A stretch of DNA of 64,000 nt from Escherichia coli (GTDB lineage: Bacteria > Pseudomonadota > Gammaproteobacteria > Enterobacterales > Enterobacteriaceae), in NCBI RefSeq assembly GCF_044647545.1, contig NZ_CP172818.1; one strand, given 5' to 3'. Position 1 is the first letter of the stretch, and every line of letters begins with the position of its first letter. Under the pieces are notes generated by a model. It did no database searches and was not told the origin of the DNA. It saw only the letters and a program-made list of their open reading frames with translations. The translations under genes were made by a program, and so were the position numbers. Below are positions 17,922-37,030 of the stretch, one piece after another.

Positions 17922-19754
17922 TCAAAACGGAAACAGCATCGGGATCATCACCACACAAACCGCCATCACGATAATGGTGAACGGTACCCCCAACTTCACA
18001 AAGTCACTGAAGCTGTAATTTCCCGGACCTAAAACCAGTGTGTTAACAGGTGAAGAAACCGGCGTCATAAAGGCGGCGGATGCTGCCATCGCCACGACCA
18101 TCGCGAATGGGTAAGGCGACACACCCATCGTTTTGGCAGCAGCCAGCGCAATCGGAGCCATCAACACCGCCGTCGCGGTATTAGAGATAAACAGCCCAAT
18201 AACCGCCGACAGGACAAACAAACAACCCAGCATCATATGTGGCCCGTAACCGCCGCCAATGTCCATCAGCCCTTTCACCGCCAGCGCGACACCTCCCGTT
18301 TTCTGTAATGCCACAGCAAACGGCATCATCCCAACGATCAAAATAATGCTCGGCCAGTGAATGGATTTATAGGCGCTTTCAGCATCGATACAGCGGAATT
18401 TCCCCATCAGCAGGCAGGCGATGATAGCGGCAACAGGATTAGGGATTTCATCGGTAAGCATTAACGCCACCATCAACACCAGGCAAAAAATGGCATGAGG
18501 TGCCTGACTGTGTGCTGGCGATGCTTCACTCACTTCTTCTGGTAAGTTCAGCGCCACAAAGTCACGCCCCTGTTTTGCCAGCATACCGATCAGTTTCCAG
18601 TTACCCACAACCAGGATGATATCGCCCAGCAGCAGAGGCTCATCCGCCAGCGAACCTTCCATCGCCTCGCCATTGCGCTTTAGCCCCACCACATTCAGTC
18701 CGTAGCGGGTACGAAAACCAATTTCGCGCACCGATTTACCAATAAGTTCAGACTCAGGAATTAATGAAATCTCTGCCATGCCCACATCAAGGGCCTGGTC
18801 AGAAAAATACTCGCCGCGCAGTACCATCGGCTCCAGCAATTGCTCACTACAAAATTGCCGGAGATCGACATCAGCCGCAGACATATCAATAAGCAAAACG
18901 TCACGCGCGCGAAATTCAGAAACCCCATTAACGTTCACGATAACGCGACGAAAACGCCGCCAGCGTTCAACACCGATGACGTTAGCGCCATAACGCTCAC
19001 GTAATTTGAGATCGTCCAGCCGTTGACCAATCATTGGCGAACCGGGGCGAATAGCCAGACGACGCGCACGCCCGGTCAGTCGATATTCACGGATAAGATC
19101 GCGAAAGGTTCGACGCGTCCAGCCTTCGCGCTGCGGGGTCTGGGTATCCCCTTTCAGCATGAAACGCATCACTAACATATACAAAATACCCAGCACCAGC
19201 ACGACCAGGCCAATAGGTGTTACGCTAAAGAAACTAAAACCATGATAGCCTTCACGCAGCAATTCACTGTTGACTACCAGGTTCGGCGGCGTCGCCACCA
19301 GCGTCATCATGCCGCTTATCAGCCCGGCAAAACTTAACGGCATCATCAGGCGCGACGGCGACGTTTGCATACGCATGGCAACGCTTAACACCACGGGAAT
19401 AAAGATAGCGACAACGCCGGTTGAACTCATAAACGCGCCAAGCCCCGCGACGGTCAGCATCAACAAAACCAACATTTTGATTTCACTGTTGCCCGCCACT
19501 TTGACCAGCCATGTCCCCATTACAGTGGCAACACCGGTACGGACCAAACCATCGCCAATAATGAACAAGGCGGCAATCAGGACAACGTTAGGATCGGAAA
19601 AGCCGGAAAATACTTCGGGGACCGTCAGCGTTCCGCTTAATGCAAACGCGACAATAACAAACAAAGCGACCGCATCCATACGCACTCTGCCCGTCGCAAA
19701 CAAGACGATGGCAACGGCCAGTAATGAAAGAACCCAAATCAATTCACCGTTCAC
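17922..19754 (-). CDS. yfbS: Putative anion transporter with internal TrkA-C (RCK_C) domains
   Basis: 610-aa ORF; hydrophobic N- and C-terminal halves flanking a charged central segment. Confidence 0.88.
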
Positions 19755-34320: not shown

Positions 34321-34409
34321 GCTGCCTGTCCTGTCGTGTGTGGTGAATTACCGCCTCTTGTCTCCCTCCGGTTACCCGAAGGGAGCGGGCTTTCTTTCAC
34401 CGATGGCGA

Positions 34410-35192: not shown

Positions 35193-35412
35193 AATGTCCT
35201 CAACTGACAGTCTTTTTATAGGGAATATTTACAGGTTTGTTACACTTATCGTGCCATAAAATTGACCATCAAGGCAAAATATCCCGCCCCGTTAGACGTA
35301 TTATTTTTCATTAAAAATGCTTAAGTATGCATTTCAATGCACCACGATAGTGCAACAAACCTGGCGTGCACCATGATGATCATTCCATCAGGTACAGCTT
35401 CCCTGCGACGTA

Positions 35413-36195
35413 TCAGTCACCGTAGACATTAAAGTCGAAATACTTTTTCGCCATCTTGTCGTAGGTGCCGTCCTGACGCAGCTCGTTAAGCGCCTTATTG
35501 AAGGCCGCCGTCAGTTCAGCATCATCTTTACGCAGCCCTACACCGGTGCCGTCACCGAAGTATTTTTTGTCTTTCACTGATGGGCCTGCAAAGGCGAAAT
35601 CTTTACCGGCGGGTTGCTTAAGGAAACCTTCGCTGGCAGCAACCTCATCTTGTAACGCAGCATCCAGGCGTCCTGCAGCCAGATCGGAATAGACCAAATC
35701 CTGGTTAGCATAGGCCACCACATCGACCCCCTTACTGCGCCAGTTATCATTGGCATACGCTTCCTGGGTTGATCCCTGCAGCACACCAACATGTTTACCT
35801 TTCAGTGAATCCAGCGTTGGCTGAATCGGTGAACCTTTGGCAGCAATCAGACGAGAGTCTGCGGCGTACAGCTTGTCGGAGAAAGCAATCTCCTGCTGAC
35901 GTTTATCGGTAATGGAAAGCGACGAAATAATGGCGTCGATTTTTTTCGCTTTCAGTGAGGGGATCAGCGCGTCAAAGTCACTGGCAACCCAGGTACATTT
36001 CACCTGCATCCGTTTGCACATCTCGTTACCGAGATCGATATCAAAGCCAACAAAGTCACCTTTGGCATCTTTCGATGAGAACGGCGCATAGGTGGTATCA
36101 GTTCCGATACGTACCGTCTCCGGTAGCGCCGCATAGCTGGAAGCCGCTGCGGAGAGACCGACTAACAAAGACAGAGCGAGAATCGACTTCTTCAT
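35413..36195 (-). CDS. argT: Lysine/arginine/ornithine-binding periplasmic protein
   Basis: 260 aa with signal peptide; about 70 percent identical to HisJ by eye. Confidence 0.93.
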
Positions 36196-36225
36196 ACATA
36201 ACCCTCAAGTGAAAATGGCTTTTTT

Positions 36226-36251
36226 ATGTTGTGTATTGTGTTGTGTGTTTG
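36226..36251 (-). promoter_or_regulatory. CA-rich element in argT 5' leader (GcvB-type sRNA target motif)
   Basis: Minus-strand caaacacacaacacaatacacaacat about 30 nt upstream of argT ATG. Confidence 0.45.
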
Positions 36252-36262
36252 CAGGCTCTTTC

Positions 36263-36282
36263 ATGCAGGTCTTATGCCATCT
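36263..36282 (-). promoter_or_regulatory. Sigma54-type -24/-12 promoter upstream of argT
   Basis: Minus-strand TGGCAT-aagac-CTGCA matches TGGCAC-N5-TTGCA at the GG/GC core with correct spacing, about 70 nt upstream of ATG. Confidence 0.45.
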
Positions 36283-36429
36283 TGACGACAACAGTAACAT
36301 TCAACGTTAAATATGTTAATAAGACGTTGCATTATTGTCCTGAAGTTGAAGATAGCAGGTATAGCGGTTGAATCGCAGCGTTTCGATTGAATGGCAGAAA
36401 CAAAATGTCGAGGATTTGATCGCGGTTGC

Positions 36430-36452
36430 AAAATTGCCCTGAAACAGGGCAA
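36430..36452 (-). terminator. Hairpin downstream of ubiX (terminator-like)
   Basis: Perfect stem ttgccctg/cagggcaa with 3-nt loop; short U run on minus strand. Confidence 0.4.
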
Positions 36453-36460
36453 CAGCGGAG

Positions 36461-37030
36461 TTATGCGCCCTGCCAGCGGGCAAAGAGATCTTCAGGAAGC
36501 GTTATGGCGAATTGATCGAGTACACGGTTAACCGTCTGATTTATCACATCATCAAGGGATTGCGGGCGATGATAAAACGCCGGAACGGGAGGCATAATCA
36601 CCGCACCGATTTCTGCTGCCTGAGTCATTAAACGCAGATGGCCTAAGTGCAATGGTGTTTCACGTACGCAGAGCACCAACGGGCGACGCTCTTTCAGCAC
36701 AACATCTGCCGCACGGGTCAGTAAGCCATCAGTATAGCTATGGACAATGCCGGACAGGGTTTTGATTGAACAGGGTAAAATCACCATCCCCAGTGTCTGG
36801 AAAGAACCGGAAGAAATGCTGGCAGCAATATCGCGCGCATCGTGCGTCACATCGGCTAATGCCTGCACTTCGCGCAGGGAAAAATCCGTTTCGAGGGATA
36901 AGGTCTGGCGCGCGGCCTGGCTCATCACCAAATGCGTTTCAACATCTGCGACATCGCGCAGAACCTGTAATAAGCGCACGCCATAAATCGCGCCGCTGGC
37001 ACCGCTGATGCCTACAATGAGTCGTTTCAT
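36461..37030 (-). CDS. ubiX: Flavin prenyltransferase
   Basis: 189 aa; N-terminal flavoprotein motif (MKRLIVGISGASGAIYGVRLLQ). Confidence 0.93.
   Translation of the reverse strand: MKRLIVGISGASGAIYGVRLLQVLRDVADVETHLVMSQAARQTLSLETDFSLREVQALADVTHDARDIAASISSGSFQTLGMVILPCSIKTLSGIVHSYTDGLLTRAADVVLKERRPLVLCVRETPLHLGHLRLMTQAAEIGAVIMPPVPAFYHRPQSLDDVINQTVNRVLDQFAITLPEDLFARWQGA

Follow-up and report, generated by a model that had tools for sequence, protein, structure and literature searches.

Introduction

Which signals act on the leader of argT, and do the σ54-type promoter and the C/A-rich stretch that lie side by side there belong to one control region? A sequence-only reading of the window (the whole stretch of DNA that was analysed, 64 kb of Escherichia coli chromosome) had proposed nitrogen-regulated NtrC/σ54 transcription combined with repression by the small RNA GcvB. 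We consider it very probable that the region is a composite control region of the basic amino-acid transporter operon argT-hisJQMP, under dual control by NtrC/σ54 and GcvB. The σ54 promoter and the GcvB site of argT are both already published.

The argT locus and its correspondence to K-12

The genes cvpA-purF-ubiX are followed by argT-hisJQMP, all on the minus strand. The argT CDS (35413-36195, minus strand), taken from the open reading frame and from the RefSeq annotation of a 100%-identical genome, is annotated there as lysine/arginine/ornithine-binding periplasmic protein. Positions are counted from the A of the argT ATG, window position 36195, which equals K-12 NC_000913.3 2427791; 5' of argT the minus strand reads ...CAAGATGGCATAAGACCTGCATGAAAGAGCCTGCAAACACACAACACAATACACAACATAAAAAAGCCATTTTCACTTGAGGGTTATGTATG.

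Of 5,426 complete E. coli genomes, 5,425 matched a 1.8-kb query taken around the argT leader, some of them at 100%, and the 150 nt 5' of the ATG had at least 99% identity in 3,589 of the 5,425. The ubiX-argT spacer is 100% identical to K-12 over its full 265 bp. Flanking coding DNA differs from K-12 at 36/783 positions in argT, at 30/261 third-codon positions and at 6/60 positions of the ubiX end (spacer against argT third-codon positions, Fisher p = 3e-10). Because the spacer is identical, experiments and coordinates from K-12 transfer to the window base for base.

Rfam models at permissive thresholds found nothing in 36520 to 35100. Just past the ubiX stop lies GTTGCCCTGTTTCAGGGCAATTTT (36430-36453, minus strand), stem-loop-like with a short T run, which by its appearance is possibly a cvpA-purF-ubiX terminator insulating argT; a terminator scan made no call at GTTGCCCTGTTTCAGGGCAATTTT and gave no ubiX terminator.

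The σ54 element of argT

The σ54 -24/-12 promoter element TGGCATAAGACCTGCA occupies 36264-36279 on the minus strand (GG at 36277-36278, GC at 36265-36266), 69-84 nt 5' of the argT ATG. It reads TGGCAT-N5-CTGCA, with GG and GC exactly 10 bp apart, and the canonical -24/-12 spacing claimed for it earlier was confirmed. The pattern TGGCAY-N5-YTGCA has a single match in the window, the argT element; by count this is not significant (0.39 expected; at least one match in 30/100 shuffles), and at two mismatches to the strict σ54 consensus the window is not enriched (18 found, 28 expected). The motif is meaningful through its position and conservation, not through its bare occurrence.

TGGCATAAGACCTGCA is the 16-mer core of the 17-mer ATGGCATAAGACCTGCA, which Bonocora et al. 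(PMC4591121) give as the motif of K-12 σ54 ChIP-seq peak OS22 (minus strand, gene argT); their motif centre lies 77 nt 5' of the argT ATG, an offset equal to that in the window. Table 1 of the same paper has a 'distance 58' entry for argT, implying a start at -58. From this entry and from promoter geometry, we infer that the σ54 start of E. coli argT lies at about -58 (36253, minus strand), 12 nt after the C of the -12 element. Genomic SELEX with RpoN holoenzyme recovered the argT spacer (PMC8743547). In Salmonella, ChIP-chip placed a σ54 site at argT, TGGCATAAGACCTGCATG, and argT was induced 3.5-fold, in a σ54-dependent manner, by the promiscuous activator DctD250 (PMC3844500). NtrC ChIP-seq of nitrogen-starved E. 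coli lists argT, as a weak entry (5.4-fold, p = 0.015, flagged; PMC4066584), and an argTp-lacZ fusion rises in a glnK mutant, in which GlnK feedback on NtrC is removed. The σ54 ChIP-seq 17-mer, the genomic SELEX, the Salmonella ChIP-chip and the NtrC ChIP-seq all support the NtrC/σ54 half of the earlier interpretation.

Starts of the σ70 type

SMRT-Cappable-seq of cultures in M9-glucose (ammonium-replete) and in rich medium mapped starts of the argT operon to 2427937 (-146) and 2427879 (-88), and a hisJ start to -49. A σ54-dependent start near -58 is absent from the E. coli maps of transcription starts that were reached, all nitrogen-replete, in which only -146 and -88 appear. No activity of a σ54/NtrC promoter is expected in such media, so the two starts, both 5' of the σ54 element, neither confirm nor refute it, and the comparison with mapped starts, suggested beforehand as a check, left the element as it stood.

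The putative σ70-type promoter for the -88 start (36283) spans 36291-36319 on the minus strand, with -35 TTAACA at 36314-36319, a 17-nt spacer and an extended -10 TGTTACTGT at 36291-36299. The upstream one spans 36341-36357 (minus strand), with an extended -10 TGCTATCTT at 36349-36357 and its start at -146 (36341). Since a simple σ70/terminator consensus scan missed every promoter that the published starts imply, the hexamers were assigned by eye from those starts. The same -146 end is where 'the entire 5' UTR' of argT begins in PMC7815308 (primer AGGACAATAATGCAACGTC).

Schaefer et al. showed that σ54 holoenzyme represses σ70 initiation at argT in vitro through overlapping binding; σ70 initiation was cut by 10-60% at four promoters in vitro, argT among them, and expression was higher without σ54. 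Together with the σ70-type character of both mapped starts, the nearer of which is 4 nt 5' of TGGCAT, these results would suit a -24/-12 element that is mainly a repressive parking site for σ54, argT being essentially a σ70 gene. We think this improbable: argT is induced under nitrogen limitation, and in a σ54-dependent manner by the promiscuous enhancer-binding protein cited above, and a 2019 study (PMC6640053) has argT transcribed from an active, NtrC-activated σ54 promoter and hisJQMP from a σ70 promoter under ArgR. Because repression and activation are compatible, parking of σ54 would add to the model of NtrC/σ54 activation and would not replace it.

The C/A tract and its pairing with GcvB

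The C/A-rich tract UGCAAACACACAACACAAUACACAAC (36228-36253, minus strand; -58 to -33, 26 nt) begins 12 nt after the C of the -12 element. Its 24/26 C/A are the maximum among 26-mers on both strands of the 64 kb; all eight 26-nt windows with at least 24 C/A fall in it, and its uninterrupted C/A run of 16 nt is the longest on that strand. The 26-nt CA-rich stretch noticed in the sequence-only reading is thus real; its placement just before the Shine-Dalgarno is not, as a 21-nt A/U-rich spacer lies between the two. The Shine-Dalgarno itself, GAGGG (36202-36206, minus strand; -11 to -7), was read in the sequence, and its (G/A)AGG core is conserved over the aligned leaders. Directly 3' of the tract is an A-rich run, UAAAAAAG (36219-36226, minus strand), a possible distal-face (ARN) site for Hfq to judge by its composition.

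Pairing was computed with the gcvB sequence of the K-12 record, R1 being nt 61-93. The 26 nt of the tract pair with GcvB nt 63-92 at -37.0 kcal/mol, an energy reached by 0/500 dinucleotide shuffles of the argT leader (shuffle mean -21.6, C/A richness kept); for R1 pairing the tract ranks 1 of 12,792 40-nt windows (both strands; mean -15.8, sd 4.2). The prediction of GcvB pairing, also named beforehand as a check, accordingly returned a strong R1 duplex at the tract. Transcripts from -146, -88 and -58 all have the tract within their 5' UTR, and in each of these three leader isoforms it is predicted to be unpaired with a mean probability of 0.72-0.81.

When RNAduplex was applied without restriction to full-length GcvB and 143-nt targets, the duplexes were over-extended and meaningless, and the R1-only scan with shuffle and whole-window controls took their place. 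The second-best R1 complement in the window (19641-19680, plus strand; -36.7 kcal/mol) is antisense to the 5' end of a 610-aa minus-strand ORF (17922-19754) and is probably not on an mRNA.

The RNA 3' end at -34

A published RNA 3' end (Term-seq; Adams et al., PMC7815308, supplementary file 3) lies at 36229 on the minus strand (K-12 2427825, -34), with 575,966 reads in LB at OD 0.4 and 961,041 in a second condition tab, among the highest in the portion of the table covered. It sits one nt inside the 3' boundary of the computed GcvB duplex, the R1 complement being immediately 5' of it. The fragment ending there would be 25 nt long from the σ54 start and 113 nt from the -146 start. In the same paper similar ends at eptB, ompA and chiP are explained by sRNA pairing; GcvB is never mentioned. 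The position at argT is consistent with exonuclease arrest at the GcvB duplex or with guided cleavage, and the end might mark a GcvB-protected or decoy leader fragment.

A C-rich, G-poor tract could also be a Rho-utilisation (rut) site, the -34 end then reflecting Rho-dependent attenuation in the leader; argT is indeed among the genes with a significant Rho score (internal site 2427233, 2.34) and a strong leader 3' end (PMC7815308). For the -34 end itself, though, the Rho score of 1.64 fell short of significance (nor does the intrinsic-terminator score of 1.27 reach the 3.0 threshold), and a fusion of the argT 5' UTR and ORF was unchanged (1.0-1.4-fold) in the rhoR66S mutant. On these two results from PMC7815308 Rho attenuation was rejected, and the tract fits GcvB R1 far better than composition alone would give; we hold a rut site to be very improbable.

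GcvB and argT in vivo

In the compilation of PMC9299463, argT is a GcvB target with seed R1, 'Verified' in Salmonella and 'Conserved' for E. coli, and is among the strongest GcvB partners in E. coli RIL-seq (5,814, 2,754 and 40,963 chimeras), CLASH (205) and MAPS (64.2). TRIC-seq, where argT again ranks with the strongest partners, localised the GcvB-argT contact in E. coli. The published interactomes, the duplex calculation and the comparison across species given below bear out the part of the earlier interpretation that concerned GcvB repression.

That the tract is only a GcvB-independent translation enhancer or standby site, its complementarity to GcvB incidental, would agree with its predicted lack of structure. 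The 26 contiguous paired positions, at an energy that 0/500 composition-preserving shuffles reach, and the recovery of the GcvB-argT pair by four independent in vivo interactome methods, with repression verified in Salmonella (PMC9299463), make this the least probable of the alternatives weighed here, and a slight one in our estimate. An enhancer role and its masking by GcvB are, moreover, not mutually exclusive.

Conservation across genera

Orthologs were sought with an anchor on the ArgT coding pattern GTDTTYAPF, so that the search carried no bias towards the motif. Among the 46 enterobacterial loci that it yielded, 41 upstream sequences were distinct; they cover at least 8 named genera (Escherichia, Salmonella, Citrobacter, Kluyvera, Pseudocitrobacter, Buttiauxella, Cedecea and an isolate labelled Klebsiella). 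Each of the 41 distinct leaders keeps TGGCA-N7-TGCA; 10/16 invariant columns 5' of the Shine-Dalgarno fall in the 16-nt σ54 element, and the flanks are scrambled. R1 pairing, computed with the E. coli R1 sequence for every species, ranges from -27 to -37 kcal/mol over the 41 leaders (median z = -3.4 against per-species composition-preserving shuffles), and in 22/41 leaders 0/200 shuffles pair as well; the leaders of Pseudocitrobacter and Cedecea pair weakly (z about -1.5 to -1.8, E. coli R1 assumed). From the -12 C to the first paired nucleotide the distance is 8-13 nt (median 12), which puts that nucleotide at about +1 of the σ54 transcript. A chance, non-functional motif was considered and rejected.

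Two natural variants were noted. The leader of Escherichia albertii has a deletion of ~13 nt inside the C/A tract, which shifts the σ54 element to -71 and weakens the R1 duplex to -27.5 kcal/mol; the distance from the -12 C to the start of pairing stays at 12 nt. In E. coli strain B27 (NZ_AP027424.1) only positions 81-150 of the 150-nt regulatory query align, at 100% identity, corresponding to -70 to -1. Similarity breaks at the -12 C, leaving the rest of the σ54 element and everything 5' unaligned; the break may be an insertion or rearrangement in the argT promoter.

Further 5', ATTAACATATTTAACG (36306-36321; -126 to -111) is conserved in Escherichia, Citrobacter, Salmonella, Kluyvera and Pseudocitrobacter, and three of its columns do not vary among the 41 sequences. 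In E. coli the TTAACA within it can provide the -88 promoter with its -35 hexamer; the wider conservation, as a pattern in the alignment, suggests a protein-binding site.

NtrC sites, hisJ and hisQ

An NtrC enhancer site typically lies about 100-200 bp upstream of its promoter, a distance that is not strictly defining. No site resembling the NtrC consensus (TGCACC-N5-GGTGCA, at most 3 mismatches) was found within 300 bp 5' of argT in Escherichia, Salmonella and most Citrobacter; in the window the range searched was 36280-36495. Buttiauxella and Pseudocitrobacter have mostly 1-mismatch NtrC sites at about -291 of argT. The strong NtrC site nearest the argT promoter in the window is ~0.93 kb downstream, in the argT-hisJ spacer: the palindrome TGCACTATCGTGGTGCA (35338-35354, minus-strand context, 5' of hisJ), which has one mismatch to the NtrC consensus; the 64 kb contain no other palindrome close to that consensus. 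It falls inside a published strong NtrC ChIP peak labelled hisJQMP (23.7-fold, stronger than argT; PMC4066584). The argT enhancer may be weak, or may be this hisJ-proximal site 0.93 kb downstream.

About 92 bp downstream of TGCACTATCGTGGTGCA, before hisJ, is a -24/-12-like element, TGGCACGATAAGTGTA (35241-35256, minus-strand context). Citrobacter, Salmonella, Kluyvera and Pseudocitrobacter have this hisJ-proximal element in the form of a canonical σ54 promoter (TGGCACGATAACTGCA, ...GCCGCA, ...CTGCT), with one to three NtrC-like sites before it; in Escherichia species GT replaces GC at its -12. E. coli σ54 ChIP-seq reports no hisJ peak (PMC4591121).

The adjacent hisJ had been said to have no equally clear CA tract, and this holds: its best leader window has 18/26 C/A, and its duplex with R1 (-15.4 kcal/mol) shows no advantage over shuffles (z = +0.35). 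According to PMC9299463, GcvB also acts in the argT-hisJQMP operon at hisQ. In the hisJ-hisQ spacer, just 5' of hisQ, CACCACACACGAC (34333-34345, minus strand) is presumably the published, verified GcvB R1 site of hisQ; its R1 duplex (-23.7 kcal/mol) does not exceed what shuffles give (z = -0.56).

Comparison with known systems

The orthologous locus of Salmonella Typhimurium, argT (argTr), has an identical σ54 site (TGGCATAAGACCTGCATG) and is likewise NtrC-dependent. Spacing in the two aligned Salmonella subspecies equals that of E. coli, and their tracts resemble the E. coli one, which is longer and forms the stronger duplex (-37 versus -27 to -28 kcal/mol, E. coli R1). GcvB repression of argT has been verified by reporters in Salmonella only (PMC9299463). 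The gltIJKL ABC transporter operon, activated by NtrC/σ54 and repressed by GcvB through R1, follows a dual logic like that of argT. SroC originates inside the gltIJKL operon mRNA and has been proven to act as a sponge of GcvB (PMC4474525); for the argT leader fragment, by contrast, a sponge role is only a candidate.

At promoters of the glmY/glmZ type, σ70 and σ54 holoenzymes compete at overlapping sites, as at argT. The argT σ70 starts (-88, -146) are 5' of the σ54 start and do not coincide with it, unlike those of the glmY/glmZ type. For eptB/MgrR, ompA/MicA and chiP/ChiX with ChiZ, the sRNA duplex has an abundant leader 3' end at its downstream edge, like that of argT, and neither these ends nor that of argT are Rho-dependent or intrinsic terminators. 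The connection of the argT end to GcvB is drawn from coordinates, unlike the connections made for eptB, ompA and chiP.

Proposed mechanism

In the proposed model of dual control, σ54 RNA polymerase would bind TGGCAT-N5-CTGCA as a closed complex, and under nitrogen limitation phosphorylated NtrC would activate it, transcription starting ~12 nt after the -12 C, at about -58. With plentiful nitrogen the σ70-type promoters (-146, -88) would supply transcripts, dampened by bound σ54 holoenzyme. Every isoform would carry the unstructured 26-nt C/A tract, which in the σ54 transcript would be the very 5' end. GcvB, made when amino acids are plentiful, would pair through its G/U-rich R1, with Hfq, with the whole tract. 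Repression would probably result from GcvB covering a C/A-rich translation enhancer or standby element and favouring decay, rather than from occlusion of the Shine-Dalgarno, and a stable leader fragment ending at -34 would be left behind. The mode of repression and the part of GcvB in the -34 end are what we infer.

Implications for amino-acid uptake

One further reading treats the promoter and the sRNA site as one conserved unit, the leader fragment being a GcvB decoy under nitrogen starvation that would de-repress other amino-acid and peptide uptake systems. We offer it tentatively and think it unlikely. It would parallel SroC from the NtrC-controlled gltIJKL; in the searchable literature we found no paper describing a trans effect of the argT leader fragment on GcvB or its other targets.

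Confirmation of the two elements adds no new biology, and the architecture was recognisable from raw sequence. Three points may be of use to specialists: the GcvB site begins at the predicted σ54 +1, with spacing strictly conserved across genera; a published, unexplained and abundant 3' end coincides with the duplex edge; and there is no recognisable NtrC site 5' of argT, with conserved NtrC palindromes in the argT-hisJ spacer. For the organism, argT is a textbook meeting of two nutritional signals, nitrogen limitation acting through NtrC/σ54 and amino-acid abundance acting through GcvB.
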